Sequence record: PQ306573.1 | Reading direction: 5' to 3' (one strand) | Length of the DNA stretch: 64,000 bases | Source: Escherichia phage vB_EcoM_PTE-Eco05 | Shown here: positions 5,333 to 63,268 of the stretch, in pieces | Layout of the letters: every line of letters starts with the position of its first letter | How positions within the stretch are numbered: the stretch's first letter is position 1 | Notes under the pieces: model-generated | The model's database searches: none | Told to the model about the DNA's origin: nothing | What the model saw: the letters and a program-made list of their open reading frames with translations, nothing else | Translations under genes and position numbers: made by a program

Positions 5333-5968
5333 ATGAAAACTACACCAATCACTATCGCTATTGACGCAATCGTAAAACAAGCTTCATCTCTTGCCACTAT
5401 GGCTAAAGTAATTAGTCAAAACCCTGCTCGGTATAATGCTATTCTTGAAACTCTTCGTCGCCCTGGACTGAGTAATTATGAAAGTCGTGTAATTATTACA
5501 GGTGTTGGTAAGAACGCTAATATCGCAACTAAAGCTTCCGAGACTTTTGCTTCACTAGGTATTCCTAGCATGTATTTGAACACTGGGCATTATTCTCATG
5601 GTGACGCAGGATTTATTGCACCTAATGATGTATTAGTTCACATCAGCCGTTCTGGTAAGACTGAAGAAATGATAGGTGTTGCTAAACATCTTCGTATGAT
5701 TCGTCCTCAGGTTAAACAGATTCTGTTACATTGTAACCCTGACATTCCACAAGAATACGAAGCTCTTTTTGATTATACGTTCTGTACTGGTATCGCGGTA
5801 GAAGTTGACGAGAACTCTTTAGCTCCGACAATGTCTACTACATTGTTGTTAGCGCTTATCGATACGTTCGCTATCAACCTTTCGTCTGAACGTGGATTTA
5901 CCTCTAATGATTTCCTTAAGTTCCATCCAGGCGGTGCACTAGGTGCCATGTTACGAGGCGAACAATGA
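5333..5968 (+). CDS. SIS-domain sugar-phosphate isomerase (KpsF/GutQ arabinose-5-phosphate isomerase-like)
   Basis: 211 aa; SIS-type Rossmann pattern (VIITGVGKN, HISRSGKTEE) and C-terminal HPGGALG typical of KpsF/GutQ-type isomerases. Confidence 0.7.
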   Translation: MKTTPITIAIDAIVKQASSLATMAKVISQNPARYNAILETLRRPGLSNYESRVIITGVGKNANIATKASETFASLGIPSMYLNTGHYSHGDAGFIAPNDVLVHISRSGKTEEMIGVAKHLRMIRPQVKQILLHCNPDIPQEYEALFDYTFCTGIAVEVDENSLAPTMSTTLLLALIDTFAINLSSERGFTSNDFLKFHPGGALGAMLRGEQ

Positions 5969-26600: not shown

Positions 26601-26630
26601 GTTTACAACCAAGGATGGTTGGAGTATAAT
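26601..26630 (+). promoter_or_regulatory. Early-type promoter (GTTTACA, 17 bp, TATAAT)
   Basis: Near-consensus GTTTACA and TATAAT seen directly. Confidence 0.55.
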
Positions 26631-26660
26631 GAATTCAACTTAAACAAAGAGAGAAAAAAT

Positions 26661-27125
26661 ATGATTAATATTGGTGAAATTAAACGTGTATCGACAGCGT
26701 CTCGTTCTAAAGCTGCAGGAAAGCTGGTTGAAGTAGTAGGACTTCGTACTAATGGCATGGGCCGTATTAAAGAAGTTAAAGTTCGAATCATTCCTAGTTC
26801 TGGAAAAACTGAAACTCAGTTCGCCTATGTAAGTCCTAAATTCTTTGAAACTCGTGTAAGTGCCCACTTTGCTTCAAGCGATATCGTTGAGCCTACTACA
26901 CAGTTCAAATGGGCCCTTTGCAAAGGCGTTGAATTTATAACCGATAAAGAATTTGATTACATCGACGAATACGGCTATCCAAGCACAACTGATACCATGT
27001 GTGGCTTCATTAGTGACCAATGGGTTGAAGATGGTGAAAAGTTATACAATATCGTATTCTTAGGTGACTTCCGAGTTGTTAAAGAATCTGAAATCACTCG
27101 CTATGTGTCTCCTCGTAAAGCTTAA
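26661..27125 (+). CDS. Hypothetical protein, paralog A of a tandem pair
   Basis: Track ORF 26619..27125 trimmed to ATG after gagaaaaaat; shares SRSKxAGKLVEV and GFISDQWVEDGxKLYNIVF blocks with the next ORF. Confidence 0.55.
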   Translation: MINIGEIKRVSTASRSKAAGKLVEVVGLRTNGMGRIKEVKVRIIPSSGKTETQFAYVSPKFFETRVSAHFASSDIVEPTTQFKWALCKGVEFITDKEFDYIDEYGYPSTTDTMCGFISDQWVEDGEKLYNIVFLGDFRVVKESEITRYVSPRKA

Positions 27126-27134
27126 GGAATTATT

Positions 27135-27554
27135 ATGAATATTGTAAATCTCTCTACAGGTAATTACGTATATGTATCTGTTGCTTCTCGCTCTAAAGTT
27201 GCCGGGAAGTTGGTTGAAGTTCTTTCTGTGAGTGATCCGGTTTTTGGACGTAACGAAGTTAAAGTTCGTGATGCTAATGGTAATATTGGCTACGTCTCAA
27301 GCCAGTTCATTGAGCCAGAAGAACGTGCGTTCAAATGGAAACTGTGCAGGTCTGTTTTAGTTGTAAAAGACCATGAATTTACTATTGCTGCTGCAACTGA
27401 CGGGTCTCCATGGACAACGAATCAAGTTGCTGGTTTTATTTCGGACCAATGGGTAGAAGATGGTGTTAAGCTTTATAACATCGTTTTCGCTGGACAGTTC
27501 ATGGTAGTTCCTGAGTTCCAAATCAAAAAATATTGTCCAGCATCTTTTGCATAA
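27135..27554 (+). CDS. Hypothetical protein, paralog B of a tandem pair
   Basis: 139 aa; same conserved blocks as the upstream ORF. Confidence 0.55.
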   Translation: MNIVNLSTGNYVYVSVASRSKVAGKLVEVLSVSDPVFGRNEVKVRDANGNIGYVSSQFIEPEERAFKWKLCRSVLVVKDHEFTIAAATDGSPWTTNQVAGFISDQWVEDGVKLYNIVFAGQFMVVPEFQIKKYCPASFA

Positions 27555-29443: not shown

Positions 29444-29460
29444 GGGCTTCGGCCCTTTTT
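29444..29460 (+). terminator. Rho-independent terminator (gggc ttcg gccc followed by T5)
   Basis: GC stem, UUCG loop and T tract seen directly. Confidence 0.65.
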
Positions 29461-29484: not shown

Positions 29485-29506
29485 ACCTTCATAACGAGGA
29501 GACAAC

Positions 29507-31324
29507 ATGATTAAAAATGAAATTAAGGTATTGTCAGATGTAGAACATATTAAGAAACGTAGTGGTATGTATATTGGTTCTTCTGCTAAAGAAGCACATG
29601 AGCGTTTTTTGTTTGGTAAATATCAACAAGTTGAATATGTTCCTGGTCTGGTTAAATTAATCGATGAGATTATTGACAACTCGGTTGATGAAGCTATTCG
29701 TACATCATTTAAGTTTGCAAATAAAATTGATGTGCAAATTAAAAATAATCAAGTTTCGGTGGAAGATAACGGACGTGGTATTCCTCAAGGTTTAGTTACC
29801 GACCAAACAGGTGAACAAATTCCTGGGCCTGTAGCAGCCTGGACTATTCCAAAGGCTGGTGGTAACTTTGGTGATGATTCTGAACGCAAGACTGGTGGTA
29901 TGAACGGCGTCGGGAGTAGTTTAACTAATATCTTCTCTACGTTGTTTACAGGCATCACGTCAGATGGCGAAAATGAAATCACTGTTAACTGTTCAAACGG
30001 AATGGAAAACAAATCATGGTCTTCTAAGAAATCTAAAGGTAAAGGCACTAAAGTAATCTTCACTCCTGATTTCACTTCATTTGAAGAGCATAATTTATCT
30101 CAAATTTATTTAGATATTACTTTAGACCGACTTCAAACATTGGCAGTCGTTTATCCTGATATCAAGTTCACATTTAATGGTAAAAAGGTTGATGGTAATT
30201 TTAAACGATTTGCTAAACAATTTGGTGAAGATAACATCATTCAAGAAAATGATAAAGTCTCTATAGCATTCACAACATCACCCGATGGCTTCCGTCATTT
30301 AACTTATGTGAATAACATCCATACTAAAAATGGTGGTCATCATGTTGAATGTGTAATGGATGATATCTGCGAACATCTTTTACCGGGTATTAAAAAGAAA
30401 TATAAGGGTATTGAAGTCACTAAAGCTCGTGTTAAAGAATGCCTCACAATGTTGATGTTTATTAGAGACATGAGCAACATGCGTTTTGATTCTCAGACTA
30501 AAGAACGTTTAACGTCAACGTATGGTGATATTCGTAATCATATCCAATTAGATGCTAAAAAAATTGCTCAGGCACTTCTTAAAAACGAAGCCTTGATTAT
30601 GCCTATTGTTGAAGCAGCATTAGCTCGTAAATTGGCAGCAGAAAAGGCTGCAGAAACTAAAGCAGCTAAAAAGGCAACTAAAGCTAAGGTTCATAAGCAT
30701 ATTAAAGCTAACCAATGTGGTAAAGATGCAGATACGACATTGTTCTTAACAGAAGGTGATTCTGCAATTGGTTATCTCATTGATGTTCGTGACCGTGAAC
30801 TACACGGTGGATTCCCATTACGTGGTAAGGTGATGAATAGCTGGGGTATGTCATATGCTGATATGATGAAGAACAAAGAGCTCTTCGATATCTGTGCTAT
30901 CACAGGTCTTATTCTTGGTGAAAAGGCAGAGAATACGAACTATCGTAATATTGCAATTATGACCGATGCCGATCACGACGGTCTTGGAAGTATTTATCCT
31001 GCTTTGCTTGCTTTCTTTAGTAATTGGCCCGAATTGTTTGAACAAGGACGTATTCGCTTTGTTAAAACACCTGTAATTATTGCACAAATTGGCAAAACTC
31101 AAAAATGGTTTTATACTGTAGCTGAGTATGAAGAAGTTAAAGATACACTGCCTAAGCATAGTATTCGATACATCAAGGGATTAGGCTCCCTTGAAAAGTC
31201 AGAGTATCGTGAAATGATTCAGAACCCTGTGTACGACGTAGTTAAACTTCCTGAAAATTGGAAAGAACTCTTTGAAATGTTGTTGGGTGATGATTCAGAA
31301 CTTCGTAAAGAATGGATGTCCTAA
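29507..31324 (+). CDS. 39: DNA topoisomerase II large subunit, unsplit gp39 (GyrB-like ATPase plus Toprim plus C-terminal segment)
   Basis: 605 aa; GHKL ATPase N-terminus, Toprim LFLTEGDSA and MTDADHDG, C-terminal YIKGLGSL...ELFEMLLGD (GyrB tail) all in one ORF. Confidence 0.9.
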   Translation: MIKNEIKVLSDVEHIKKRSGMYIGSSAKEAHERFLFGKYQQVEYVPGLVKLIDEIIDNSVDEAIRTSFKFANKIDVQIKNNQVSVEDNGRGIPQGLVTDQTGEQIPGPVAAWTIPKAGGNFGDDSERKTGGMNGVGSSLTNIFSTLFTGITSDGENEITVNCSNGMENKSWSSKKSKGKGTKVIFTPDFTSFEEHNLSQIYLDITLDRLQTLAVVYPDIKFTFNGKKVDGNFKRFAKQFGEDNIIQENDKVSIAFTTSPDGFRHLTYVNNIHTKNGGHHVECVMDDICEHLLPGIKKKYKGIEVTKARVKECLTMLMFIRDMSNMRFDSQTKERLTSTYGDIRNHIQLDAKKIAQALLKNEALIMPIVEAALARKLAAEKAAETKAAKKATKAKVHKHIKANQCGKDADTTLFLTEGDSAIGYLIDVRDRELHGGFPLRGKVMNSWGMSYADMMKNKELFDICAITGLILGEKAENTNYRNIAIMTDADHDGLGSIYPALLAFFSNWPELFEQGRIRFVKTPVIIAQIGKTQKWFYTVAEYEEVKDTLPKHSIRYIKGLGSLEKSEYREMIQNPVYDVVKLPENWKELFEMLLGDDSELRKEWMS

Positions 31325-31340
31325 GCTCCTTCGGGAGCTT
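31324..31340 (+). terminator. Stem-loop (agctcc ttcg ggagct) after gene 39, weak T tract
   Basis: 6-bp stem with UUCG loop, followed by cattttaatttt. Confidence 0.45.
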
Positions 31341-31366: not shown

Positions 31367-32467
31367 ATGAAAGTTATGTTTATCCCATCTCGCGCAGTCC
31401 CATTTAACCCAGAACGTGTACAAGGTGGTCTTGAAGCAGTACATTTAAATGTGTTGAAATATTTAGTTTCTATCGGTGCCGATATTGATTATATTGGTTT
31501 TGATAATGACACGTTTGGTGACTGGAAAGTTAATCATCATCCTGTTGGTCATCTGACTAAATTCAGTCTAGGTATGAGTTATACTATGGCTCGTAAGATT
31601 GTTGAACTAGCCGGCATTAATGAGTACGATTTCGTTGTTACAATGGAACCGACCAAACTAACCGTTCAGGCAATTAAAGACGCAGGTCTCTCTAAAGTTC
31701 ATAAGAATTTTATGGCAACACCATTTGAACCAGTATCTCGTGGCATTGTTCAAATTTGGGACCAGACTATTCAAATTCGTAAGAACGGTGGTAAGAGTTA
31801 TGCTCCTACTAAAGCCTTCCGTGAATTTGAACGCAAATATTGTTATATGACTTCAGGTCTGACTGACAAAATTGATTATGATTATTGGCGAGCAAATCCG
31901 TTGTTTGAAACCGAAGATTATCCGGTTATTTGTTTGAATGAGAAACCTGAAGTTCTTCCGGCGACTGATCTGATTATTAGTGCACAACGTTATGACACTA
32001 AAATGCGTCGTACTGATGTTGCTCTTGAAGCGATTAAAGCACTAGGCGAAAATGGTGTAGGATACTGTCCTAGTAAATGGGCACCACCGGCTAAGTATCC
32101 TGTTATTATTGATGCTCCACACAGTGAAATCATGGAACGTCTTAAAACAGCTAAAGCACTTATCAATACGTGTCCTGACACGGGTACGGTAGAGAATAGT
32201 TCTATTGAAGCCATCTCTAAAGGTGTCCCTGTGATTCAGTTAGTTTTTAAGGATTATCCGCACGCGACATTCGAATACGACCCAGATACTGTGCGTGTAG
32301 AAATTGATTCCTCTACTCCTAAGAAAGAAGTAGTTGCGCTTTACACAAAAGCTGTATTAGAATTCACTGACACATACGAAGCTCGAGTTAAACGTGCTGA
32401 AGCCGTATGGAAGAAGTATAACCGAGATGCAGTTGTTGCGATGTGGGATAAAATCTTCACAGCGTAA
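31367..32467 (+). CDS. GT-B fold glycosyltransferase (GT4/GT5-like); candidate DNA sugar transferase
   Basis: 366 aa; N-terminus MKVMFIPSRAVPFNPERVQGGLEAV resembles the xGGL donor-binding start of GT4/GT5 enzymes; C-terminal TGTVENSSIEAISKGVPVI resembles the E-x7-E/PVI motif. Confidence 0.6.
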   Translation: MKVMFIPSRAVPFNPERVQGGLEAVHLNVLKYLVSIGADIDYIGFDNDTFGDWKVNHHPVGHLTKFSLGMSYTMARKIVELAGINEYDFVVTMEPTKLTVQAIKDAGLSKVHKNFMATPFEPVSRGIVQIWDQTIQIRKNGGKSYAPTKAFREFERKYCYMTSGLTDKIDYDYWRANPLFETEDYPVICLNEKPEVLPATDLIISAQRYDTKMRRTDVALEAIKALGENGVGYCPSKWAPPAKYPVIIDAPHSEIMERLKTAKALINTCPDTGTVENSSIEAISKGVPVIQLVFKDYPHATFEYDPDTVRVEIDSSTPKKEVVALYTKAVLEFTDTYEARVKRAEAVWKKYNRDAVVAMWDKIFTA

Positions 32468-38251: not shown

Positions 38252-38391
38252 TGATTAAGAAAATCTTAGCAGGAGCCTTCGGGCTCTTGTTGTTGCTTAC
38301 GGTTCTGTACTACGGTGTGATGTTTGGACTAATCCAAGTAGTGCTTTTCATTTCAGATGTTATAATGGTTATTCGTTCATTAATATGGTGA
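38251..38391 (+). CDS. Small hydrophobic peptide (46 aa)
   Basis: MIKKILAGAFGLLLLLTVLYYGVMFGLIQVV...; start overlaps previous stop. Confidence 0.3.
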   Translation: MIKKILAGAFGLLLLLTVLYYGVMFGLIQVVLFISDVIMVIRSLIW

Positions 38392-41906: not shown

Positions 41907-42194
41907 ATGCTTACTAAAATCAAAGAAAATCCTGCCACTGAACTTGTTATTCGATGTGAAGAACTTGCAGAGCTTTATCAGGTTAACCGAGAAGTGTATC
42001 GTAGTGTTGTTGTAGATATGGCAGACGAAGTATGTTCTCGTATTCCTTTTAGTGTCGATTTCAATCACATGAAGCCTGGTGAAATCACTATCGTCTTTGG
42101 TTCTGACTATACTGAAGAACGGGCTCTTAATGTCCTAGAATATGAAATGTCATTCTTTGACATACAGGACTACATTGATAGTTATAAGGAATGA
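41907..42194 (+). CDS. Hypothetical protein (about 95 aa); start uncertain
   Basis: Track ORF 41820..42194 has an odd basic N-terminal extension; ATG at 41907 follows aagggtaaagact. Confidence 0.4.
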   Translation: MLTKIKENPATELVIRCEELAELYQVNREVYRSVVVDMADEVCSRIPFSVDFNHMKPGEITIVFGSDYTEERALNVLEYEMSFFDIQDYIDSYKE

Positions 42195-42195
42195 T

Positions 42196-42357
42196 ATGAG
42201 CCATAATCTTCAGAACGTAGTAGAGGCAGAACGTGAGCGTGAGGCTTTAGTCTATAATGAACTATTAGCCACGTTCTTGGCCTTACACTCGTATGAACAG
42301 GAAGACTACACTGATTACGTTAAAAGTGTAGAAAAAGCTGTTTACAATCAACACTGA
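42196..42357 (+). CDS. Hypothetical small protein (53 aa)
   Basis: Track ORF 42142..42357 trimmed to ATG after ataagga. Confidence 0.35.
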   Translation: MSHNLQNVVEAEREREALVYNELLATFLALHSYEQEDYTDYVKSVEKAVYNQH

Positions 42358-42372
42358 TAATGGTACTATACT
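42340..42372 (+). promoter_or_regulatory. Early-type promoter (GTTTACA, spacer, TACTATAC) upstream of asiA
   Basis: Seen directly. Confidence 0.5.
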
Positions 42373-42403
42373 CATATCAACTAAATGGAATGAATAAAAC
42401 GTT

Positions 42404-42676
42404 ATGAATAAAGATATTGAAATTGTACGTGAAATTATTACGGTTGCTTCTATTTTGATTAAATTCTCGAGGGAAGATATTGTTGAAGACCGAGCAAATT
42501 TCATCGGATTCTTGAATGAGATTGGAATTAAAAAAGATGGTCGGCAGCTAAATCAGAATTCGTTCAGAAAACTAATTACAAATTTAACCGCCGAAGAAAA
42601 GAAAACACTGATTAGTGAATTCAATGAAGGTTTTGAAAATATTTATCGCCATTTGACGATGTATTCTAACAACTAA
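42404..42676 (+). CDS. asiA: Anti-sigma-70 factor AsiA
   Basis: 90 aa; size and sequence resemble T4 AsiA as I recall it; adjacent to holin t in opposite orientation as in T4. Confidence 0.8.
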   Translation: MNKDIEIVREIITVASILIKFSREDIVEDRANFIGFLNEIGIKKDGRQLNQNSFRKLITNLTAEEKKTLISEFNEGFENIYRHLTMYSNN

Positions 42677-43336
42677 TTATTTAGCCCGCCCTAATATCCT
42701 TGCTGCTTGGTTGCATATTGCAGCCAAGCGTTCTTCATTTAACACATCCGACCCCTTATACCAATACATAGAAACAGTTCCAGCATATATGTTATCCAAA
42801 TTGAAGTAAGGACAACTATACATATACGCCAGTTCCGGAGTTTTTGATTTGGTAGGTAAGAAAGCAAAATCTGTTTTAGAAGTAAAGTGAAGTCCACTTA
42901 AATGGACCGAATATTCTGCTGTCGTTTTATCAACAGGAAATCCTCCCATAGATTTTTCAGTTACTGTGCTAGGTAACTTACCTTCATACGCAATAAGGTC
43001 GACGAAATAATTTAGATTTTTAGGTCTGAAAGAATACACCGAACTAAAATCCGCCCTTGATGTGACGTGGACTATTTGTAGTTGTTCTAAAGCCGCAGAT
43101 TCAAATCGTGTATTTCTTTCTTTTTGAATTACTTCTGTGTAAGTATCATATTTCGACCTCACGTAATAATCCATAAAAATATTCCCTTTGTACCATATTA
43201 GTGCCATTAGGAACAAAAGAACTACAACAGCAACTCTTGAAATAAGAATATTTCCGGAGGCGTTATCTTTGAAAATGCGGTCTAGCAACCCAAATAAAAT
43301 ATCACTAGGCGAAAATGATACTTTTGGTGCTGCCAT
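42677..43336 (-). CDS. t: Holin T (class III holin, lysis-inhibition sensor)
   Basis: Track ORF 42677..43348; second ATG (MAAPKVSFSP...) chosen because the first ATG lies inside the gggagg RBS; single N-terminal TM helix. Confidence 0.85.
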   Translation of the reverse strand: MAAPKVSFSPSDILFGLLDRIFKDNASGNILISRVAVVVLLFLMALIWYKGNIFMDYYVRSKYDTYTEVIQKERNTRFESAALEQLQIVHVTSRADFSSVYSFRPKNLNYFVDLIAYEGKLPSTVTEKSMGGFPVDKTTAEYSVHLSGLHFTSKTDFAFLPTKSKTPELAYMYSCPYFNLDNIYAGTVSMYWYKGSDVLNEERLAAICNQAARILGRAK

Positions 43337-43355
43337 ATTACCTCCCATTTATCAA

Positions 43356-43363
43356 TATTTATA
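43356..43363 (-). promoter_or_regulatory. Late promoter TATAAATA for holin t (minus strand)
   Basis: Plus-strand tatttata is the reverse complement of TATAAATA, about 20 nt upstream of the t start. Confidence 0.5.
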
Positions 43364-43381
43364 ATTGAGAGGTATTATCGT

Positions 43382-44155
43382 TTAAATCCAGGAGCCGTAG
43401 ATTGTGCCTGTAGCACCCCATGACGGTGAACTTCCGAATACTGCTCTGCCAGGAGAACCACCGCCGGATCTAGATAAGTGTTTACCCCATCCATCTCCGC
43501 CCCGACCTCCAGCATCACCGCCATTGCCTCCGCCGTATTGGGAAGTGTAACCGGCACTGCCCGGGGCGTCATAACTAGCATTACCGCCAGGCCAATTAAC
43601 GCCACCGCCGCCGAGGCCAAATGGTCTGCCGCCACCGCCACCTGCTGTAGCATTTGGCGCCCAGCTATTCTGTAATGACACTGCACCACCACCACCACCA
43701 CCTGATGCAATAACGCCATAGTTCCAAATACGAAGTCTTCCGCCGATATCATTTTGGATTACATCGCCACCATTTGTGCCTGGGTTTCCGTTTACAGTAC
43801 CGTTACCACCTCGTCCCCACATATGAACTCCACCATGAATATTCAAAGTAACATATTCATTTGGCGTATCGCCATACATAAAGAATAATGGAACATCTTT
43901 ACTATATGATACTAAATTTCCAGTGATATTAAACACTATAGGTGCACTACCTGCCTCAAAACATCTATCTCGGAACCATTGACCATTGAAGTTATGGTCT
44001 GCTCCAAGTGTGTGAATTACTTCAACAGATCGACCTATCATATTACTCATCCAAAACGGAATTCCCATTCTCAATCTCTGTGCGGCACCACCCATCCAAT
44101 TTTGTCCTGTATTAACTACTGCAGACGATCCTACCCACGGTCCTGTTACTGCCAT
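43382..44155 (-). CDS. 38: Tail-fibre adhesin gp38, T2-type (glycine-rich, tip-bound receptor-recognition protein)
   Basis: 257 aa from ATG after ggagg RBS (track ORF begins at a TTG at 44167); conserved N-terminus plus poly-Gly blocks (GGGGGG, GGGGG) separating short variable segments. Confidence 0.8.
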
Positions 44156-44185
44156 ATAAACCTCCAAGGGCCGAAGCCCCTCTTA

Positions 44186-47100
44186 TTATTTTAACAATGA
44201 TTTAACTAATGCTTTAAGTTCTTCAATTTCTGATTTAAGTTCCGCAATTTCTGTAGTATGTTCATTTATTGCAGCTGTATTTAAACCAATTACACCGTTA
44301 TAGTTCAAACGAAGTAAAGCTTCGCCATCGGGGTCACCTTCAACTAATTCTGGTAAAATAGCTTGAACTTCTTGGGCTATCAAACCGGCGTTAGGTTCCC
44401 ATTTCTGATTGCCTTCTTCGTCCGTTCCACGTTTCTGCATATAAGTGTAACCGTTAATTTTAGAAAGCTTCTCAGAAGCATTTTCAAATTTAACAAGGTC
44501 TTTTTTAACACGAATATCAGAACGGACATAAACATCACGGACAAACGTTGAATAACTATCATTTGCCTGAACGAGATGCCCATGAGAAACGATAGCTCTT
44601 CCAACTTCTGTCCAAAAAGCACCGGTTGAATCCCAAAGCCCAGGATGAGATTGATAGCCTGCTCCCCAGTTTGCAATATGTATACCATTGGCAACCATAT
44701 TGATTCGGCCGTCACCACCATGAACTAATCCGGTGTCATTATCACCAATAACAACACATGCGCCTGTCCATGCAGGGTCACCTCCACCAGCTGATATTCT
44801 TACTCCAGCTTTAACCATGTCAGGAACGTACATGTTTCCATTATGGTGGAATTCGAAGATAGCTTGTGGGTCGGAACCGTTTTCCTGATTACCTACACGA
44901 ATAATACCTTGTGCCCAGTTATTAGGAATGCGTCGCATACCAAAATCAACACCAGATACGTATCCATCATTCGTAATAACAGATTTTCCTTTGATAATTG
45001 GATAATAACTATCATTACCGACGTAGCCAAAATCCACAAATACGGGAGCTTCCTGGCGCCATTGATTTCCCCAATCGCCGGCCTGGTGTGCGGTCCAGAC
45101 CGACCCATTTATATAAATTCGGTCCCTATTAAAATTAAAAGTGGCAGTCCCTTCCGGGTTTAAAGCAATATCACCACCATTATTAACATATATGCCTGAT
45201 CTATTTTGGAAACTATAAAACGATATGGCATTATCAGCACCACCATTACCTACATACCAGTTATCAACGCCTGCTTTTTGTCCTTTCAAATAGCCAGATT
45301 CGGTTGCCGTGCTATTAATAACGATGGCATCAGAGTTTGCATTAAGAGTTAAGCGACCTGTCATCGTGTCGCCTTCTTTAGAAACACGGGTAGCTATTGC
45401 ATCGCGAATATTTGTAGTGTCTCCTGCTGAAGTAAACGATTTCCAAATATCCGAGAAAATATTACCATTACGAGCAATAGTAGCTTCACCGCCGCCGACC
45501 TGAACGTTATCTGGGAAGTTAACAGTACCGTCTTGATTAAAACGAGACGTATGGCCTTGTGAACCATCTTCTTTCAGATGATGAATAACGAATGTACCCG
45601 AACTAATTTCAGTACCTAAAGACCAAACAGCTTTACCATTTAAAAACTTCTGTTTAACAATAGGATAATATTTGCTTACAGCATCATCATCAATTTCCTG
45701 GAAAATAGGAGCCGCTTGAGCATATTGAATATCATAACCACCAGCGCCTGCGCCATGACCAGTAAATTTAATATAGCCGTTTGCTGCGAACGTATTGTAA
45801 CTTGATTGTAAATCTGGAATAGTAACTTTACCAGTATCTAAAGCCATACTAAACGGGCGAAGTGGACCGATATCACCATTTTTGCCTTCACCATAAGCAG
45901 TCGGAATAATATGAAGACTACCTTCTGAACGTCTAAAAATGGCTCCATAATCTGCGTTCCAAATACGAAGCGCATTCACTGCTCCAGATGAAATTTCGCC
46001 TGTTGTGTGAACTCCTCTATTTCCAGCAGTAACACCAGATGATTCAAATGAACCGTTAACGTTCATTTCTACTTCACCTGTTGTAAGTCTTTGAATATAG
46101 CTCATCCAACTAGTTGCATCAGAAATTTCCATGACGTTTTTACGATTACCTACACTAGGATTAGTAAACGTATTGCCCCACACAGAAATTGTCATATTAT
46201 CAACTGAACTAGCTCCGGTCGTGTTACCTCTAAACATCAGTGTAGAAGCATTATTTCTACCATCGATATTAACAGAACCACCAATAACGTCAATATTACC
46301 AGGAGTAACTAACAAACCGCCGTGAGTATTAATGTTTGTGGTACCCTTGCCGCGGAAATAATGATGATAGTTACCGCCTTGATAATATCCTAAAAGAGTC
46401 TGACCATCTCCAAACGCGTTATTATCGTGATATGTCACGACAGTAGCGAGAGCATAGTTTTCAGTTGGAGGAGTAGTTAAATCGGTTCCGTTAGTAGAAT
46501 ATCCAGCTACAAATTTTCTTAGGCTAGTTGTTTCGCTGGGACTAAATAAAAATGTTTTCGTTCCATTATTAACGCTAAAATAATATCCATCTTGATGCCA
46601 TTTAAATCCAGTATCATTATCGCCAAGAGAAATTGAAGCAGTCCCTAATTCAGAGTATCCTTTATTGCCACCAGGAGTACCAACAGAAATAGAATGGCCT
46701 GCTTTCAATCCACCTGACCAGGTAAACGACCAAAGATAAGTGTCTAAGCCATCTCCAGTATACCAAGTTATTCCATCATTATCTTTAACTTCATGGAATA
46801 CACCAGCGCCTACAGCATTGCGCATAACACGGAGATGATTAATAGCAGTAGTGCTTTCAGACAATGGAACGTTGTCTGCCATAGAATAAATGTCATAATC
46901 GCTCGTAGATTTATTATTAGTAATAACTCTATTTGTCAAAATCTGAGGAGTTGACATAGATTTCCATGCTGATACTTCAGGTGAAGTAAATAGTCCACTG
47001 CCCGAAAATGCATAGGTGCTTTCATCACCAGCGGCGTAGTCTTTAACGCGGATATTAACTACTTGCGTAGTTAATCCATCATTAGCCGGTGCATAAATAA

Positions 47101-47497
47101 TGCCACGTTCACGATCAGCCGAATCATGAAAACGAACATGTGCTGTACCTGAACTTTTTGTAATAAGTTCACCGCCTTCGGTCATAATCTGCCCAGCGGC
47201 AATAATATCACGAGTTACTCGAGCAATACCGGTTAAATTAAAATTACCTGTCTGAGTGAAGGTGCCATTTAAAGTATAATCGCCAGTTTGGTTATAATTG
47301 CCAGTATGAATAACATTCCCGTCAATACTACCACCTTTAGCAAAACCCAGATCAATAATATTTCCTTGGTCATCTTTAGTAAAAAGTACACGGTCTTTTA
47401 AGTTTATAGCCAATTCACCTTCGGCTAATACTGAAGCGGCAGGACGTGCTCCTGCAGTTTTGCTTCTTTTAAATTGTATTTGTTTTAAAGTAGCCAT
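44186..47497 (-). CDS. 37: Long tail fibre distal subunit gp37 with C-terminal intramolecular-chaperone-like domain
   Basis: 1103 aa; N-terminus MATLKQIQFKRSK...; C-terminal roughly 110 aa ...DIRVKKDLVKF...NYNGVIGLNTAAINEH...EELKALV resembles autoproteolytic chaperone domains. Confidence 0.88.
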   Translation of the reverse strand: MATLKQIQFKRSKTAGARPAASVLAEGELAINLKDRVLFTKDDQGNIIDLGFAKGGSIDGNVIHTGNYNQTGDYTLNGTFTQTGNFNLTGIARVTRDIIAAGQIMTEGGELITKSSGTAHVRFHDSADRERGIIYAPANDGLTTQVVNIRVKDYAAGDESTYAFSGSGLFTSPEVSAWKSMSTPQILTNRVITNNKSTSDYDIYSMADNVPLSESTTAINHLRVMRNAVGAGVFHEVKDNDGITWYTGDGLDTYLWSFTWSGGLKAGHSISVGTPGGNKGYSELGTASISLGDNDTGFKWHQDGYYFSVNNGTKTFLFSPSETTSLRKFVAGYSTNGTDLTTPPTENYALATVVTYHDNNAFGDGQTLLGYYQGGNYHHYFRGKGTTNINTHGGLLVTPGNIDVIGGSVNIDGRNNASTLMFRGNTTGASSVDNMTISVWGNTFTNPSVGNRKNVMEISDATSWMSYIQRLTTGEVEMNVNGSFESSGVTAGNRGVHTTGEISSGAVNALRIWNADYGAIFRRSEGSLHIIPTAYGEGKNGDIGPLRPFSMALDTGKVTIPDLQSSYNTFAANGYIKFTGHGAGAGGYDIQYAQAAPIFQEIDDDAVSKYYPIVKQKFLNGKAVWSLGTEISSGTFVIHHLKEDGSQGHTSRFNQDGTVNFPDNVQVGGGEATIARNGNIFSDIWKSFTSAGDTTNIRDAIATRVSKEGDTMTGRLTLNANSDAIVINSTATESGYLKGQKAGVDNWYVGNGGADNAISFYSFQNRSGIYVNNGGDIALNPEGTATFNFNRDRIYINGSVWTAHQAGDWGNQWRQEAPVFVDFGYVGNDSYYPIIKGKSVITNDGYVSGVDFGMRRIPNNWAQGIIRVGNQENGSDPQAIFEFHHNGNMYVPDMVKAGVRISAGGGDPAWTGACVVIGDNDTGLVHGGDGRINMVANGIHIANWGAGYQSHPGLWDSTGAFWTEVGRAIVSHGHLVQANDSYSTFVRDVYVRSDIRVKKDLVKFENASEKLSKINGYTYMQKRGTDEEGNQKWEPNAGLIAQEVQAILPELVEGDPDGEALLRLNYNGVIGLNTAAINEHTTEIAELKSEIEELKALVKSLLK

Positions 47498-47505
47498 AAG
47501 TCCTC

Positions 47506-48162
47506 TTAATAATAGCCGAAATCTTGAACAGAATCCTTAATAACAATTTGGTCAAATCGTGGAACATGTGAGGGTTGAGATGCAGGATTCTGTGAGAAAA
47601 AGTTTGGGGCAGTTAGCGCGCCGGTCATCGTATCTCCTGAACGGAGTACACGACTGTTTGCATTAGCATTAACTGTATTTATTTGACTATCAACATAATC
47701 TTTGCGAGTAAGGTCGTAATTATTTAAAGGTGCTAACGTTGTGGCTCTGAATTGAGATGCTTCAATAACGCCTTTAGAACTTATATTACCGGTGCGAGTA
47801 TCAATTACAACAGTTCTTTCACCTGTACCTTGAGATGATTTAAACCCAATACCATACCACGAAACAATATCCATGTTTGTTTGGTCGAATGTCGCGGCGT
47901 CAGCACCACCAGAAAAAATACCATTCGTTTGGTCATCTGCTGTTTTGACTGCAACACCTTCGTTAAAGATTACCTTTTTGAGATATGTCCCACCATTTGC
48001 TTTAGATACGAAATCGTTATCAGCCGCTTTTGGCTTGTTATATTCGGTGTATAATTTAAATGTTTTATATAGGATGTCATCGCCAGCTGGCATTAAAGGA
48101 AAATTGCCTTGATGCCATATGACGGAACCACCAACTGTACTTCCGGCTTTTAAATCGGCCAT
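47506..48162 (-). CDS. 36: Long tail fibre hinge connector gp36
   Basis: Track ORF 47506..48213 trimmed to ATG (MADLKAGS...) after aaggaga RBS; late promoter upstream. Confidence 0.8.
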   Translation of the reverse strand: MADLKAGSTVGGSVIWHQGNFPLMPAGDDILYKTFKLYTEYNKPKAADNDFVSKANGGTYLKKVIFNEGVAVKTADDQTNGIFSGGADAATFDQTNMDIVSWYGIGFKSSQGTGERTVVIDTRTGNISSKGVIEASQFRATTLAPLNNYDLTRKDYVDSQINTVNANANSRVLRSGDTMTGALTAPNFFSQNPASQPSHVPRFDQIVIKDSVQDFGYY

Positions 48163-48188
48163 TTCGTGTCTCCTTATTAATATTAAAG

Positions 48189-48196
48189 TATTTATA
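48189..48196 (-). promoter_or_regulatory. Late promoter TATAAATA for gene 36 (minus strand)
   Basis: Reverse complement of plus-strand tatttata lies between the gene 35 stop and the gene 36 RBS. Confidence 0.5.
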
Positions 48197-48221
48197 CGCG
48201 AAAAGGAGACCAAAGTCTCCT

Positions 48222-49346
48222 TTATTCTGTGTACTCTTTAAATTCCTGCCCAAATACCTTACCTGTGTCGTTAGATAACTGAGTAGGCAAGTCCATTATA
48301 TCATTACCGGTTAATGATTCATCAATGTAATTAACACGAATACCGTTTATACCAAACTCGGCGGGTTTTGCTATACTTCCGTTACATGATACTTCAGTGA
48401 AAATAACATTTCTTAGTCCACCTTGACCGACTGAGGCCGTACGGTAACAATATACTGTAAAGCCATCAGCTTCAGCTGGTATTTCAACGTATTCTTCATA
48501 TAGCTTCCACTCCCGGGCAGTTCCATCAAAGTTTATATCTTTAGATGATATAGGAGAGCTAGATGGAGACTTAAAGAAACGAATTGAAAGTCTTGTGGTT
48601 CCTTCCTCTAATAATTCTTCATCAGCCATTAATTGAAATTTCAAATAAAGAAAATCTGTAGGCTTTAATCCATAGTTTGCGATAGGAGTAACAAGGGATG
48701 ATGTAGGCATCCTTTTTATTTCATTGTTAGTTCCTCCAACAGGAGATAAAAACGTTTCTAGAGCTTCATATGTACGTCTAGGATAGCCGGTAGCACCTAT
48801 ATCAGCAATAGAGTCATATACAATATCTAATGGAGTTGCGTAATCAGAAATTGTTTTCTTATTACTGTATTTTATGTGTTCTAATGCAATAGTATTTTTA
48901 CCTGAAACATAAAACGCTGAATATGAAATATCAACAAGACTAGCAACTTCAATCGACGGTATAACTGAACTCCCAGCAGCTTTAAACCATTCAATTATTT
49001 CTGGCGGCAAATTAAATTTGTTATTAGAAATAAATGCGAAAATGAAATTATCTGCGTATGTGTTAACAAACGAAATAAATGCAGCTGAAGTTGCATTATT
49101 TGTAGGCGCAAAATTGTATAATTTACTATCAACTATAGTTCCATTTTCCGGATTTATCACCCTAACATTTAGTCCAATACCAAAAGACTGCAACCCTAAA
49201 GGCTCATTTTGGAATAAAATATACGGATTAGTTGTTGAAAGCGGGCATGAACCCGCTATACTTAGCTTAAATCTAACTGAATTGCTTTCCGATAAAAACG
49301 GCGTTTGGACGTATCCCTGTCCAAACCTTGCCATAAATTTTTCCAT
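48222..49346 (-). CDS. 35: Long tail fibre hinge connector gp35
   Basis: 374 aa; MEKFMARFGQGYVQTPFLSES... start; synteny 34-35-36-37. Confidence 0.85.
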   Translation of the reverse strand: MEKFMARFGQGYVQTPFLSESNSVRFKLSIAGSCPLSTTNPYILFQNEPLGLQSFGIGLNVRVINPENGTIVDSKLYNFAPTNNATSAAFISFVNTYADNFIFAFISNNKFNLPPEIIEWFKAAGSSVIPSIEVASLVDISYSAFYVSGKNTIALEHIKYSNKKTISDYATPLDIVYDSIADIGATGYPRRTYEALETFLSPVGGTNNEIKRMPTSSLVTPIANYGLKPTDFLYLKFQLMADEELLEEGTTRLSIRFFKSPSSSPISSKDINFDGTAREWKLYEEYVEIPAEADGFTVYCYRTASVGQGGLRNVIFTEVSCNGSIAKPAEFGINGIRVNYIDESLTGNDIMDLPTQLSNDTGKVFGQEFKEYTE

Positions 49347-49354
49347 ATAACCTC

Positions 49355-58438: not shown

Positions 58439-59454
58439 TAATTTAGGCCTAGGTATAAGGTGACTTATACTTGTAATCTATCTAAACGGGGGACCTCTCT
58501 AGTAGACAATCCCGTGCTAAATTGTAGGACTACCCTTTAATAAATACTTCTATATAAAAAGAGGTGTTTATGAAAAGCGGAATTTATCAGATTAAAAACA
58601 CTTTAAACGGTAAAGTGTATGTTGGAAGTGCTAAAGATTTTGAGAAAAGATGGAAGAGGCGTTTTAAAGACCTTGAAAACGGTGTTCACTCTTCTATAAA
58701 ATTTCAAAGGTCTTTTAATAAACATGGTAATGTTTTTGAATGCTCTGTACTGGAAGAAATTCCATATGAGAAAGATTTGATTATTGAACGAGAAAATTTT
58801 TTGATTAAAGAGCTAAATTCTAAAATTAATGGATATAATATTGCTGATGCGTCTTTTGGCGATGTGCTTTCAAATCATCCATTAAAAGAAGAAATTGCTA
58901 AGAAACGAGCTGAAACTGTTAAAGCTAAGATGCTTAAGCTTGGTCCTGACGGTCGGAAAGCTCTTTATGGTAAACACGGAAGTAAAAATGGCCGATGGAA
59001 TCCAGAAAACCACAAGTTTTGTAAATGCGGTGTTCGCATACCATCTTCGGCCGATACTTGTGGAAAGTGCCGAAAACGTTCAGGTGAAAATAACCCGTTC
59101 TTTAATCACAAACATTCAGAAAAAACTAAAACTAAACTATCTGAAAAGATGAAAGGCAAAAAGCCAGCTAACATCAAAAAGATTTCATGCGATGGGATTA
59201 TTTTTGAATGTGCAGCCGATGCGGCTAGACATTTTGAAATTTCATCAGGATTAGTTACTTACCGTGTAAAATCTGATAAGTGGAATTGGTTCTACATAAA
59301 TGCCTAACGACTATCCCTTTAGGGAGTAGGGTCAAGTGACTCGAAACGATAGACAACTTGCTTTAACAAGTTGGAGATATAGTCTGCTCTGCATGGTGAC
59401 ATGCAGCTGGATATAATTCCGGGATAAGATTAACGACCTTATCTGAACATAATG
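58439..59454 (+). mobile_element. Group I self-splicing intron in td (1016 nt) carrying a homing endonuclease ORF
   Basis: Exon 1 ends in U (..cttaggt); intron ends ..ataatg; 5' and 3' core segments (gtgacttatacttg..., ...gggataagattaacgaccttatctgaacataatg) flank the ORF; spliced product restores ...FLG-LPFNIASY. Confidence 0.85.
58570..59307 (+). CDS. GIY-YIG homing endonuclease, I-TevI-like (intron-encoded)
   Basis: 245 aa from ATG after agaggtgttt; N-terminal GIYQIKN...GKVYVGSA GIY-YIG module; Cys4 zinc finger and C-terminal DNA-binding domain. Confidence 0.88.
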   Translation: MKSGIYQIKNTLNGKVYVGSAKDFEKRWKRRFKDLENGVHSSIKFQRSFNKHGNVFECSVLEEIPYEKDLIIERENFLIKELNSKINGYNIADASFGDVLSNHPLKEEIAKKRAETVKAKMLKLGPDGRKALYGKHGSKNGRWNPENHKFCKCGVRIPSSADTCGKCRKRSGENNPFFNHKHSEKTKTKLSEKMKGKKPANIKKISCDGIIFECAADAARHFEISSGLVTYRVKSDKWNWFYINA

Positions 59455-59766
59455 CTACCGTTCAACATTGCCTCGTACGCTGCCTTGACGCATATTGTAG
59501 CGAAGATGTGTAACCTTATCCCAGGTGATTTAGTGTTCTCAGGCGGCAACACGCATATCTACAGCAATCATGTAGAACAATGCAAAGAAGTTCTTCGTCG
59601 TGAACCTAAAGAGTTGTGTTCTCTTGAAATTAATTGGCCTAGTAATTTTGAGAATTGGCCTACAAAAATCCAAATGGACTGGGTTACTGGAACGATGACA
59701 CATTCTGATTTCGTTCTTAAAAATTACGAATCTCATCCAACTATCAAAGCTAAAATGGCGGTATAA
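59455..59766 (+). CDS. td: Thymidylate synthase, exon 2
   Basis: Begins LPFNIASYAALTHIV... (TS C-terminal core); joined exons give about 286 aa. Confidence 0.88.
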   Translation, partial: LPFNIASYAALTHIVAKMCNLIPGDLVFSGGNTHIYSNHVEQCKEVLRREPKELCSLEINWPSNFENWPTKIQMDWVTGTMTHSDFVLKNYESHPTIKAKMAV

Positions 59767-60108: not shown

Positions 60109-61533
60109 ATGCAAGTAACTAAGAGCAGTGGTGTATCCCAAAATTTTGATGCACAGAAAATTATTCAAGTCTTAACTTGGCAATGTGAAGGAACACAAAT
60201 TGACCCATATGAATTGTACGAAGAAATTAAGACCCATCTTGTCGACGGGATGAGCACCAAAGATATCCAGAAGATTTGTATTAAAGTTGCAGCTAACTCG
60301 ATTTCTGTCGAAGAACCTGATTATCAGTATGTCGCCGCCAAAGGGCTAATGTTTGCACTTCGTAAAGATGTATATGGGCAGTTTGAACCGCCTGCTTTTA
60401 TCGACCATATTTCTTATTGTGTTAATGAAGGCAAATATGACCCTGAGCTGTTGTCTAGATATTCTGCAGAAGAAATCATTTATCTTGATTCTCGGATTAA
60501 ACATGAGCGAGATTTTGACCTGACTTATGCTGGTGCTATGCAGCTTAAAGAAAAATACCTGGTTAAAGATAAAACAACTGGGAAGATTTATGAAACTCCA
60601 CAGTTTGCTATCATGGCTATCGGTATGGCCTTACACCAAGACGAAACTCATGACCGTTTGAAACATATTATTCGTTTTTATGATGCCGTTTCTACTCATC
60701 AAGTTTCATTGCCAACCCCAATTATGGCAGGTGCTCGTACTCCAACTCGCCAGTTCTCTAGTTGTGTAGTTATTGAAGCCGGTGATTCGTTAAAATCTAT
60801 TAACAAAACTTCAGCATCAATTATTGAATATATTTCTAAACGAGCTGGTATTGGTATCAACGTTGGTATGCTTCGTGCAGAAGGTTCTAAGATTGGTATG
60901 GGTGAAGTTCGACATACAGGTGTTATTCCATTTTGGAAACATTTCCAAACTGCAGTAAAATCTTGTTCTCAAGGTGGTATTCGTGGTGGTGCTGCTACAG
61001 CGTATTATCCGATGTGGCACTTAGAAGTAGAGAACCTATTAGTTCTGAAAAATAACAAAGGCGTGGATGAAAACCGTATTCGACATATGGACTACGGAAT
61101 TCAGATTAATGACCTCATGATGGAACGCCTTGGTAAAAATGATTATATTACTTTATTTAGCCCTCACGAAATGTCAGGCGAACTATACTACTCGTTCTTT
61201 GAAGATCAAGATAAATTCCGTGAGCTTTATGAGAAAGCTGAAAAAGACCCAACAATCAGAAAGAAAAGAATCAAAGCACTAGAACTCTTTGAATTGTTCA
61301 TGACTGAACGTTCTGGTACTGCTCGAATTTATCCACAGTTTGTTGATAACACGAATAACTACACTCCGTTTATTCGTGAAAAAGCTCCAATTCGTCAGAG
61401 TAACTTATGTTGTGAAATCGCTATTCCAACTAATGATGTGAATAGCCAACAAACCCGTTTAATCAAAATTAAGAAGTCGGATGTAGCTAAGTTTTATGAA
61501 GCTAATCCTGGCGGTATAATTCAAAGCAAATAA
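60109..61533 (+). CDS. nrdA: Ribonucleotide reductase large subunit, N-terminal fragment (NrdA-a)
   Basis: 474 aa; class Ia NrdA through active-site SNLCCEIAIPT..NDVN, then about 30 non-homologous residues and a stop. Confidence 0.85.
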   Translation: MQVTKSSGVSQNFDAQKIIQVLTWQCEGTQIDPYELYEEIKTHLVDGMSTKDIQKICIKVAANSISVEEPDYQYVAAKGLMFALRKDVYGQFEPPAFIDHISYCVNEGKYDPELLSRYSAEEIIYLDSRIKHERDFDLTYAGAMQLKEKYLVKDKTTGKIYETPQFAIMAIGMALHQDETHDRLKHIIRFYDAVSTHQVSLPTPIMAGARTPTRQFSSCVVIEAGDSLKSINKTSASIIEYISKRAGIGINVGMLRAEGSKIGMGEVRHTGVIPFWKHFQTAVKSCSQGGIRGGAATAYYPMWHLEVENLLVLKNNKGVDENRIRHMDYGIQINDLMMERLGKNDYITLFSPHEMSGELYYSFFEDQDKFRELYEKAEKDPTIRKKRIKALELFELFMTERSGTARIYPQFVDNTNNYTPFIREKAPIRQSNLCCEIAIPTNDVNSQQTRLIKIKKSDVAKFYEANPGGIIQSK

Positions 61534-61578
61534 AGTACACAGACCGTTAATAAATAATCCATAACAAGAGGAAAAGTT

Positions 61579-62289
61579 ATGGATTATTCTAAAATTTACA
61601 ATAACCTTATTTCTAAAGCTAAGAATAGAAAATTAGATTGCTATACCGAATCACACCATATTATACCTCTGTGTATTGGTGGTTCTGATACAAAGGAAAA
61701 CCTGGTAGATTTGACACCAGAAGAGCATTACATAGCTCATCAATTATTAGTAAAGATATATCCAGATAATCATAAATTGATATTTGCCGCTAATATGATG
61801 TGTGTTTATTCTAAAGATAATATTGAACGAAAGAACACCAATAAACGCCATGGGTGGCTTAGAAGAAAATTGGCTATTTCTGTATCTGAAAATAATAAAG
61901 GCAAACCAGCTTGGAACAAAGGTATTCCTATGTCTCCAGAAGTTAAATCTCGACTTCAAACATCTTGGGTGTTTACATTTCCGGATGGTCATGAGGAAAT
62001 TCATCGAGGTCTTAACGAATTTTGTAAAGAGCATAATTTAAATCCATCTGCAATGTCAGCCGTTTGTAAAGGTAAACGGGCGCATCACAAAGGATTTAAG
62101 TGTAAGAAATTGGATAAGATTTCAGAGCTTGATAATTTAGTTTTCGTCAGTAAACCTCATCCAAAGGGATTAAAACCCCATAACTTAATTGCTGTAAAAA
62201 TAAACGGTATAGAATATCAATCAATACATCGAGCATCTAAAGCTTTAGGAATTACTAGAAAAAAGGTAGAAGAATTAAATGAATATTGA
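61579..62289 (+). CDS. HNH homing endonuclease inserted within nrdA
   Basis: 236 aa; HNH motif ESHHIIPLCIGGSDTKENLVDLTPEEHYIAH; C-terminal putative DNA-binding modules; own RBS aagagga. Confidence 0.8.
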   Translation: MDYSKIYNNLISKAKNRKLDCYTESHHIIPLCIGGSDTKENLVDLTPEEHYIAHQLLVKIYPDNHKLIFAANMMCVYSKDNIERKNTNKRHGWLRRKLAISVSENNKGKPAWNKGIPMSPEVKSRLQTSWVFTFPDGHEEIHRGLNEFCKEHNLNPSAMSAVCKGKRAHHKGFKCKKLDKISELDNLVFVSKPHPKGLKPHNLIAVKINGIEYQSIHRASKALGITRKKVEELNEY

Positions 62290-63268
62290 TTATGAATTTG
62301 TAGATGAATTTTACGAAGATGATGAGTATACTACAATAAAAGTTATTGAAAACAAGGGAGAAGTGGGGCTTTGTACTCTCTCTGCATTCGTATTAGATAA
62401 ATTTGATTGGCAAGACCAAGATAAAATTAATGAACTTGCTGAAGTACAAGTACGTGCACTTGATAACCTGTTAGACTATCAAGATTATCCGGTTCCAGAA
62501 GCTTTAAAAGCTAAAAAGCGTCGTAATCTTGGTGTTGGTGTTACGAACTATGCTGCATGGTTAGCTTCTAACTTTGCTTCATATGAAGACGCTAACGATT
62601 TGACTCATGAATTGTTTGAGAGATTGCAATATGGCCTTATCAAAGCATCAATCAAACTCGCCAAAGAAAAAGGATGTTGCGAGTATTATTCAGACACTAA
62701 ATGGTCTAGAGGCGAATTACCTATCGACTGGTACAATAAAAAGATTGACCAAATCGCAGCCCCGAACTACGTCTGTGACTGGGAAGAACTTCGAGCTGAA
62801 CTCAAAGAACATGGAATTCGTAACTCAACGTTGTCTGCACTCATGCCTTGTGAGTCAAGCAGTCAAGTATCGAACTCTACAAACGGGATTGAGCCCCCAC
62901 GTGGTCCAGTAAGTATTAAAGAATCTAAAGAAGGCAACTTCCGACAGGTTGTTCCTAATATCGAACATAACATGAGTCTTTACGACTACGCGTGGAAACT
63001 TGCTAAGAAAGGTAATAAACCTTATTTGACCCAAGTTGCTATCATGTTGAAATGGGTGTGCCAATCTGCTTCTGCTAATACTTACTACGACCCTGCAGTA
63101 TTTGAGAAAGGTAAAGTGCCAATGTCAGTAATGCTTGACGATCTGCTTTACTTCTGGTACTTTGGCGGAAAAAACCTCTACTATCATAACACCCGTGATG
63201 GGTCAGGTACAGATGACTATGAATTAGAAACACCTAAAGCTGAAGATTGCTCTGCTTGTAAGCTTTAA
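62279..63268 (+). CDS. nrdA: Ribonucleotide reductase large subunit, C-terminal fragment (NrdA-b)
   Basis: 329 aa; resumes at ...GEVGLCTLSAF and contains SALMPCESSSQ and C-terminal CSACKL; start overlaps endonuclease gene end. Confidence 0.85.
   Translation: MNIDYEFVDEFYEDDEYTTIKVIENKGEVGLCTLSAFVLDKFDWQDQDKINELAEVQVRALDNLLDYQDYPVPEALKAKKRRNLGVGVTNYAAWLASNFASYEDANDLTHELFERLQYGLIKASIKLAKEKGCCEYYSDTKWSRGELPIDWYNKKIDQIAAPNYVCDWEELRAELKEHGIRNSTLSALMPCESSSQVSNSTNGIEPPRGPVSIKESKEGNFRQVVPNIEHNMSLYDYAWKLAKKGNKPYLTQVAIMLKWVCQSASANTYYDPAVFEKGKVPMSVMLDDLLYFWYFGGKNLYYHNTRDGSGTDDYELETPKAEDCSACKL

Follow-up and report, generated by a model that had tools for sequence, protein, structure and literature searches.

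The large subunit of the T4 type II topoisomerase is split between the products of genes 39 and 60, which together form the ortholog of the protein described here; the T4 locus contains a MobA cassette, and a 50-nt translational bypass is needed to read gene 60. The three-subunit enzyme of T4 arose when this homing-endonuclease cassette was inserted into the Toprim-coding region, bringing with it the CTE, mobA, the 50-nt bypass, and an NTE that includes the homR copy. At least ten independent MobA insertions were mapped against "parental" unsplit genes in a 2022 preprint (bioRxiv 10.1101/2022.08.31.505936), and the unsplit state was also treated in earlier literature (Edgell et al.; PMC2988022). 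The three-subunit T4 enzyme was contrasted with the two-subunit enzymes of T2 and T6 in a 2024 structural paper, in which the T6 gp39 and gp52 heterotetramer was solved by cryo-EM and displayed ATP-dependent, m-AMSA-sensitive relaxation, while the T4 insertion was seen to hang from the Toprim domain as a pendant that hardly affects activity (PMC11461880). In sequence databases, the gene is named "60plus39" in RB14, RB43, and Aeromonas phages 31 and 65, and the RB69 RefSeq entry carries a note that an insertion in T4 splits the large Topo II subunit into gp60 and gp39.

The locus analyzed here lies in a stretch of 64 kb (the window) from a genome of roughly 169 kb, and carries gene 39 as a single open reading frame. 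This unsplit reading is supported by the data presented below; it is also already known and long documented. As a discovery it carries little weight. The unsplit gene is the reference state against which the gene 60 bypass of T4 is defined. Its practical use is that the annotation is confirmed and that one more naive MobA target sequence becomes available for comparative or homing experiments. The features of the locus and of the other relevant parts of the window are collected in Table 1.

Table 1. Positions of gene 39, its domains, and other features within the 64-kb window
Feature	Position	Strand	Basis or remark
Shine-Dalgarno sequence GAGGAG	29496..29501	+	5 nt 5′ of the gene 39 ATG; sequence read directly
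Gene 39 ("60plus39" type), unsplit large (GyrB/ParE-like) topoisomerase II subunit, 605 aa	29507..31324	+	ORF list
GHKL ATPase domain, aa 47-190	29645..30076	+	Pfam HATPase_c, E = 3e-11, 44.2 bits (cut-off 26.4)
Transducer domain, aa 249-385	30251..30661	+	Pfam DNA_gyraseB, E = 2.8e-14, 53.4 bits (cut-off 27)
Toprim and C-terminal associated domain, aa 411-605	30737..31321	+	Pfam, motifs, alignment
Uninterrupted segment, homologous to the target of MobA insertion	30926..30992	+	BLAST, codon comparison, alignment
Contiguous codons G492 (GGT) and L493 (CTT), equivalent to the T4 bypass position	30980..30985	+	Codon-by-codon comparison
366-aa ORF adjoining gene 39	31367..32467		RB69 ORF003c-type putative hmC arabinosyltransferase (PMC6024577)
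Gene 52, GyrA/ParC-like DNA breakage-reunion subunit, 441 aa	38396..39721	+	Pfam DNA_topoisoIV
I-TevI-like GIY-YIG ORF interrupting td	58564..59307		
td 3′ exon	59452..59766		Follows the GIY-YIG ORF
nrdA piece 1	60109..61533		ATP-cone, all-alpha domain, barrel profile positions 1-221
HNH endonuclease ORF, 236 aa	61579..62289		Between the nrdA pieces; HNH domain 50% identical to that of MobA
nrdA piece 2	62279..63268		Barrel profile positions 219-523

Gene 39, its relatives, and the predicted enzyme

The ORF starts with ATG, ends with TAA, and contains no internal stop codon. While the ATPase and transducer domains scored well above their Pfam cut-offs, the Toprim profile gave only a weak match to aa 411-519 (17.5 bits, under the curated cut-off of 23.1), and TOPRIM_C matched aa 520-604 with 28.2 bits, slightly under its cut-off of 29. 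These low scores are made up for by the catalytic motifs and the structural homolog from T6, and the Toprim region is covered by full-length alignments to solved T6, T4, ParE, and Topo II structures. Each diagnostic motif occurred exactly once in the protein. The ATPase part contained the N-box EIIDNSVDE (aa 54-62, with E54 and N58), DNGRGIP (aa 87-93), and the ATP-lid GGMNGVGSS (aa 130-138), the transducer contained the QTK loop (aa 330-332), and the Toprim part contained TEGDSA (aa 415-420), which holds the catalytic Glu, and DADHDG (aa 487-492), whose DADHD (aa 487-491) represents the DxDxD motif. Together with the gp52 partner, the GHKL motifs, the QTK-containing transducer, and the Toprim Glu and DxD residues make this a B-type subunit as judged from its sequence. 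The preliminary description had placed a GHKL ATPase, Toprim motifs, and a GyrB-type C-terminal segment in one 605-aa ORF, with which the ORF, the Pfam matches, and the motifs all agree; the strings YIKGLGSL (aa 555-562) and ELFEMLLGD (aa 587-595) were both found exactly as it quoted them, once each.

A 6-kb segment around gene 39 shared 97.5-98.2% identity with numerous Mosigvirus phages of Escherichia and Shigella, including pEB20, mogra, ChristianSchoenbein, Shf125875, APCEc01, and mar005P1, and on this similarity the source phage is assigned to Mosigvirus as an RB69-like T-even phage. An identical protein (100%) was found in phage vB_EQ1, where it is annotated as "DNA topoisomerase II large subunit". 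The gene order of the window, namely cef, goF, a small zinc-ribbon ORF, an ORF005c-like gene, 39, the 366-aa ORF003c-like gene, rIIA.1, rIIA, and rIIB, shares with RB69 the series cef, goF, 39.2-like, ORF005c-like, 39, ORF003c-like, rIIA.1, and rIIA. The interval between gene 39 and rIIA.1 is occupied by the 366-aa ORF in Mosigvirus, whereas there is only a short spacer in RB14. The RB69 gp39 (NP_861694) is unsplit, colinear, and 96% identical, differing by 24 substitutions and a one-residue gap, nearly all of which fall within aa 7-47. Since this part of the RB69 sequence from 2003 departs from every other homolog, its divergence probably stems from a sequencing error in that reference entry.

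Outside the genus, the T2 and T6 gp39 proteins and the RB14 "60plus39" protein have 604-605 aa, the same domain order, and a two-subunit architecture with gp52, at about 18% amino-acid divergence from the protein studied here. The T6 protein (PDB 8ylu_C, 604 aa) matched over aa 1-605 with 1160 bits; structures of this unsplit protein are available as PDB 8YLU, 8YO1, 8YO5, 8YOD, and others. The RB14 protein, from an unsplit Tequatrovirus, was 82% identical with a gap-free junction (...GLILGEKAENTNYRNIAIMTDADHDGLGSIYP...), and the only gap relative to it was a single residue at column 301 of the four-way alignment. Significant matches were also obtained with human Topo II alpha and beta, yeast Topo II, ParE, and GyrB (E values from 1e-61 to 1e-37), in line with the GHKL-transducer-Toprim fold order common to bacterial GyrB/ParE and the N-terminal half of eukaryotic Topo II. 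In contrast to GyrB/ParE, the phage protein has neither the GyrB-specific insert nor the C-terminal DNA-wrapping partner domain, and the phage topoisomerase is known to relax DNA and not to supercoil it (PMC11461880).

The partner gene 52 matched the Pfam DNA_topoisoIV profile over positions 1-417 of 432 (E = 4e-78, 263.6 bits), and is syntenic with the "type II topoisomerase medium subunit" gene of phage ChristianSchoenbein. Gene 39 would be translated conventionally from the ATG behind the GAGGAG Shine-Dalgarno sequence, and its product would assemble with gp52, encoded 7 kb downstream, into a two-subunit A2B2 heterotetramer resembling the T2 and T6 enzymes. This complex is predicted to be an ATP-dependent type IIA topoisomerase that relaxes supercoils and supports phage DNA replication. 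The enzymatic activity and the subunit stoichiometry are deduced from the 82% identity to RB14 and the full-length match to T6 gp39.

T4 topoisomerase mutants have only a DNA-delay phenotype, and the gene is thus conditionally dispensable. This dispensability is the only point in favor of an intact but decaying or non-functional gene 39, with the host or some other gene providing topoisomerase function. Such decay is extremely improbable, because no catalytic motif is missing, gene 52 for the partner subunit is intact, and about 146 Mosigvirus records encode the protein with 96-100% identity. Furthermore, the insertion-site segment differed from that of RB14 by about 20 nt in 201 nt, almost all of them synonymous, with near-identical proteins, which indicates purifying selection. 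We found no evidence against an ordinary unsplit gene 39. The ORF is almost certainly the normal, never-interrupted gene 39 of a Mosigvirus, encoding a complete and conventionally translated GyrB/ParE-type subunit that pairs with gp52 and never received the cassette. ORF continuity, the domains and motifs, the colinearity with unsplit homologs, the absence of the cassette, and the presence of gene 52 were all observed directly.

Comparison with the split gene of T4

For the comparison, the T4 locus was taken in the order rIIA, rIIA.1, 60, 60.1, mobA, 39, and the T4 gp60 query was rebuilt from the coding pieces on either side of the annotated 50-nt gap. In BLAST, aa 1-473 of T4 gp39 corresponded to aa 1-474 of the gene 39 protein (79% identity, E = 0), and aa 27-159 of T4 gp60 corresponded to aa 473-605 (86% identity, E = 1e-87), E values that indicate homology and not chance. 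In this alignment, which the preliminary description had proposed as a check, the two T4 segments map end to end onto one frame. The description had also placed the gene 60 part at the C-terminus and named the last 160 codons for a bypass search; a gp60-homologous segment is present there, but it comprises 133 aa instead of about 160. No counterpart in the ORF was found for the C-terminal 43 aa of T4 gp39 or for the N-terminal 26-30 aa or so of T4 gp60. In the published account these unmatched ends are supplied by the element, as the CTE and as the NTE with the homR copy of 64 deleted nucleotides (bioRxiv 10.1101/2022.08.31.505936). The features specific to T4 thus comprise the 43-aa element-derived C-terminal extension of gp39, the mobA (pseudo)gene, 60.1, the N-terminal extension of gp60 of about 30 aa, the homR copy, and the 50-nt untranslated gap.

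The position of the split is within the Toprim-coding domain, and the Toprim DxDxD-G motif directly precedes the T4 gap. Homology to T4 gp39 stopped at codon 474 (GEKA, nt 30917-30928), and codons 475-486 (ENTNYRNIAIMT) correspond to the region that is deleted upon MobA insertion and replaced with the homR copy of the element. A few codons further on, T4 gene 60 has the take-off codon GGA, a UAG stop, the 50-nt gap, and resumption at UUA. Codons 489-494 here (nt 30971-30988) read GAT CAC GAC GGT CTT GGA, compared with GAT CAC GAT GGA [50 nt] TTA GGT in T4, so that the residues across the gap position are D-G-L-G, encoded by GAC GGT CTT GGA with nothing inserted.

A single ORF may also result from "hit-and-run" re-fusion, in which a gene once split by the MobA cassette is re-joined after loss of the endonuclease and the bypass, and re-fused single ORFs of this kind are reported in Aeromonas phages ("clade 7"; bioRxiv 10.1101/2022.08.31.505936). 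However, re-fused ORFs keep CTE- and NTE-homologous insertions at the site, while this gene 39 contains no extra sequence: its 605 aa compare with 604-606 aa in RB14, T6, and RB69, and the junction is gap-free. Moreover, the T4 CTE and NTE peptides had no significant match in the ORF or in the whole window (best E values 0.2-1.2, tblastn). Since there is neither an insertion relative to RB14, T6, and RB69 nor any CTE/NTE similarity, the gene represents the naive "parental" state, and re-fusion is very improbable and effectively refuted. A MAFFT alignment placed the 43-aa CTE of T4 scattered over the C-terminal region, which is an artifact, as BLAST found no significant similarity there.

Search for a cassette, a bypass, or a second gene 60

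A six-frame tblastn search of the 64-kb window with T4 gp39 and gp60 found no second gp60- or gp39-like sequence, the next-best E value being above 6. For the genome beyond the window, the absence of a gene 60 rests on near-identical complete genomes: in those of vB_EQ1, F2, mogra, and ST0, whose proteins are 99-100% identical, the gene 39 homolog was found at one place per record. No tblastn match to MobA was obtained at the gene 39 locus; the sole MobA-like match in the window was an HNH domain (E = 1e-16) located 30 kb away within nrdA. The 50-nt gap sequence of T4 had no significant blastn-short match in the window. Twelve nucleotides of the T4 take-off hairpin, AGCCTTCGGGCT, recur exactly at 38274-38285, on the upstream side of gene 52 (E = 0.12). 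This match was rejected as a bypass element; we regard it as a CUUCGG-type hairpin, a type that is common between genes and is also present on the flanks of gene 39.

A T4-type bypass combines a GGA take-off codon, a stop codon with a hairpin, a gap of about 50 nt, and a landing codon, whereas the codons at 30980-30988 are a contiguous GGT CTT GGA. RNA folding around the homologous site (30940-31010) was unremarkable, at only −2.4 to −9.6 kcal/mol. The possibility that a cryptic hop or frameshift signal in the 3′ third yields an alternative product beside the full-length protein had in its favor one strong local hairpin at 31167-31206, the strongest in this third, with −13.5 kcal/mol in 40-nt windows (ORF mean −4.55, SD 2.6). 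This hairpin was rejected as a recoding signal because it overlies the conserved YIKGLGSLEK codons and loses stability through synonymous substitutions in RB14 and T4, where the structure is not conserved. A scan of the last 200 codons in three frames for a codon, a stop, and a matching codon at 30- to 80-nt spacing returned 37 triples, all of which were in the two non-coding frames, since frame 0 has no stop, and they were uninformative as recoding sites. With no frame-0 stop to stall ribosomes, cryptic recoding has hardly any probability.

These searches bear out the three statements of the preliminary description on the state of the locus. It had excluded a gene 60 split and named a separate gene 60 as a finding that would overturn this, and none was present in the window or in the near-identical complete genomes. 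Its exclusion of a translational bypass agrees with the open frame 0, the contiguous codons, and the failure of the gap sequence to match. Finally, its reading as the uninterrupted state of the locus was right, with all cassette parts absent and the ORF colinear with unsplit homologs.

Frequency of the unsplit state and other homing elements

The unsplit state was found to be common. In tblastn, 2004 of the 2202 records with a homolog had at least 80% of the protein in one place, and among the 60 of these 2202 records that were listed, only T4 (three pieces) and Shigella phage CT01 (two pieces) were fragmented. The DNA found only in the T4 element, from the CTE through the landing site, was fully covered in 41 of 480 matching T4-type records (about 8.5%). 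The other 439 records matched only from 9 nt past the landing codon and are accordingly unsplit; in "clade 1", to which T4 itself belongs, the element is reported to reach 9 nt beyond the cassette (bioRxiv 10.1101/2022.08.31.505936). A 161-nt probe spanning the site of insertion and bypass matched 162 records, every one of them with the segment intact; in 154, the identity was at least 95%, corresponding to the Mosigvirus level. The split gene of T4 with its ribosome hop is a rare exception among T4 relatives, while the unsplit state is the rule and, in sequenced Mosigviruses, apparently without exception.

As none of the 162 site-segment records carried the cassette, compared with about 8.5% of the T4-type (Tequatrovirus) records, gene 39 of Mosigvirus might be refractory to MobA homing, although we consider this rather unlikely. 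If it is, the reason could lie in some 10 synonymous differences within the 45 nt surrounding the nick site; alternatively, its arabinosyl-hmC DNA might prevent nicking, or recombination with phages that carry glucosyl-hmC. Members of both genera share a near-identical HNH element in nrdA, which shows that other homing elements cross the Mosigvirus/Tequatrovirus boundary and would point to target-site specificity and not to a general barrier to exchange.

In the window itself, nrdA is divided into two pieces (Table 1), and td is interrupted as well. The intact gene 39 thus reflects the absence of one specific cassette and not a generally "clean" genome. The td intron was not called, as a scan of the whole window at the Rfam gathering thresholds gave no matches at all. 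The nrdA insert was found in only 34 phage records, and the copy in this Mosigvirus was about 99% identical to those in Tequatroviruses such as Yersinia phage fPS-2 and vB_EcoM_112, which suggests recent homing across the two genera.

Two-part nrdA and its HNH element

The ribonucleotide reductase (RNR) large subunit gene nrdA is present as two ORFs on the plus strand between 60109 and 63268, separated by a homing-endonuclease ORF of the HNH type, and the break falls at position ~220 of the Pfam barrel profile. Like T4 39/mobA/60 and Aeh1 nrdA/mobE, the arrangement is a case of "genes-in-pieces". In the close relative ChristianSchoenbein, nrdA is unsplit. When the HNH element and its nrdA junctions (61450-62400) were searched against the phage collection, just 34 phage records matched. 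The element in this Mosigvirus was ~99% identical to those of the Tequatroviruses fPS-2 and fPS-90 (Yersinia phages) and vB_EcoM_112, whereas the topoisomerase protein was only 82% identical to that of Tequatrovirus RB14. This sequence comparison suggests recent homing of the element across the boundary between the two genera.

Apparent interruption of td

Since an I-TevI-like ORF is followed by the C-terminal exon of thymidylate synthase at 58564-59766 (+), td appears to carry a group I intron. An Rfam scan at the gathering threshold gave no match for such an intron.

Surroundings and reference sequence of gene 39

The RB69 RefSeq gp39 differed from our protein almost exclusively at aa 7-47, for example VEPLLRNRMVCILVLS in RB69 versus VEHIKKRSGMYIGSS here. 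In this segment, T4 and RB14 side with our protein and not with RB69, a pattern suggesting that the RB69 reference sequence of 2003 contains compensating frameshift or sequencing errors.

The interval from gene 39 to rIIA.1 holds a 366-aa ORF homologous to RB69 ORF003c, a proposed hmC arabinosyltransferase (PMC6024577). The ChristianSchoenbein homologue carries this annotation, and Pfam returned no match for the 366-aa ORF. By contrast, RB14 has only a short spacer here, and in T4 the interval is occupied by the mobA/60.1/gene 60 segment.

Hairpins with CUUCGG tetraloops lie on both sides of gene 39 and upstream of gene 52. The T4 take-off hairpin has 12 nt identical to the one before gene 52. 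The hairpins at both genes are probably ordinary T-even intergenic terminators or stabilisers.

Coordinates of the features discussed
Feature	Position	Strand	Details
Paralogous ORF 1	26619-27125	+	168 aa
Paralogous ORF 2	27135-27554	+	139 aa
Hairpin	29444-29460		GGGCTTCGGCCC + T-run; directly after stop of ORF upstream of gene 39
Divergent gp39 stretch	29525-29650		RB69 NC_004928, ~5340-5465
Hairpin	31325-31338		GCTCCTTCGGGAGC; directly after gene 39 stop
ORF003c homologue	31367-32467	+	directly 3' of gene 39
Hairpin	38274-38285		AGCCTTCGGGCT
I-TevI-like GIY-YIG endonuclease	58564..59307	+	Pfam GIY-YIG, I-TevI_ZnF, I-TevI_DNA-bd
Thymidylate synthase C-terminal exon	59452..59766	+	profile positions 176-266
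nrdA, first ORF	60109..61533	+	474 aa
HNH ORF	61579..62289	+	236 aa
nrdA, second ORF	62279..63268	+	329 aa

Paralogous ORFs and base composition

Two neighbouring ORFs upstream of gene 39 are clear paralogues sharing ASRSK.AGKLVEV and GFISDQWVEDG.KLYNIVF.G.F.VV; in relatives, both are annotated simply as "hypothetical protein". The GC skew turns negative at ~42000-52000, where synteny with ChristianSchoenbein would place the late tail-fibre block (genes 34-38, holin) on the opposite strand; this is an ordinary strand-composition effect.
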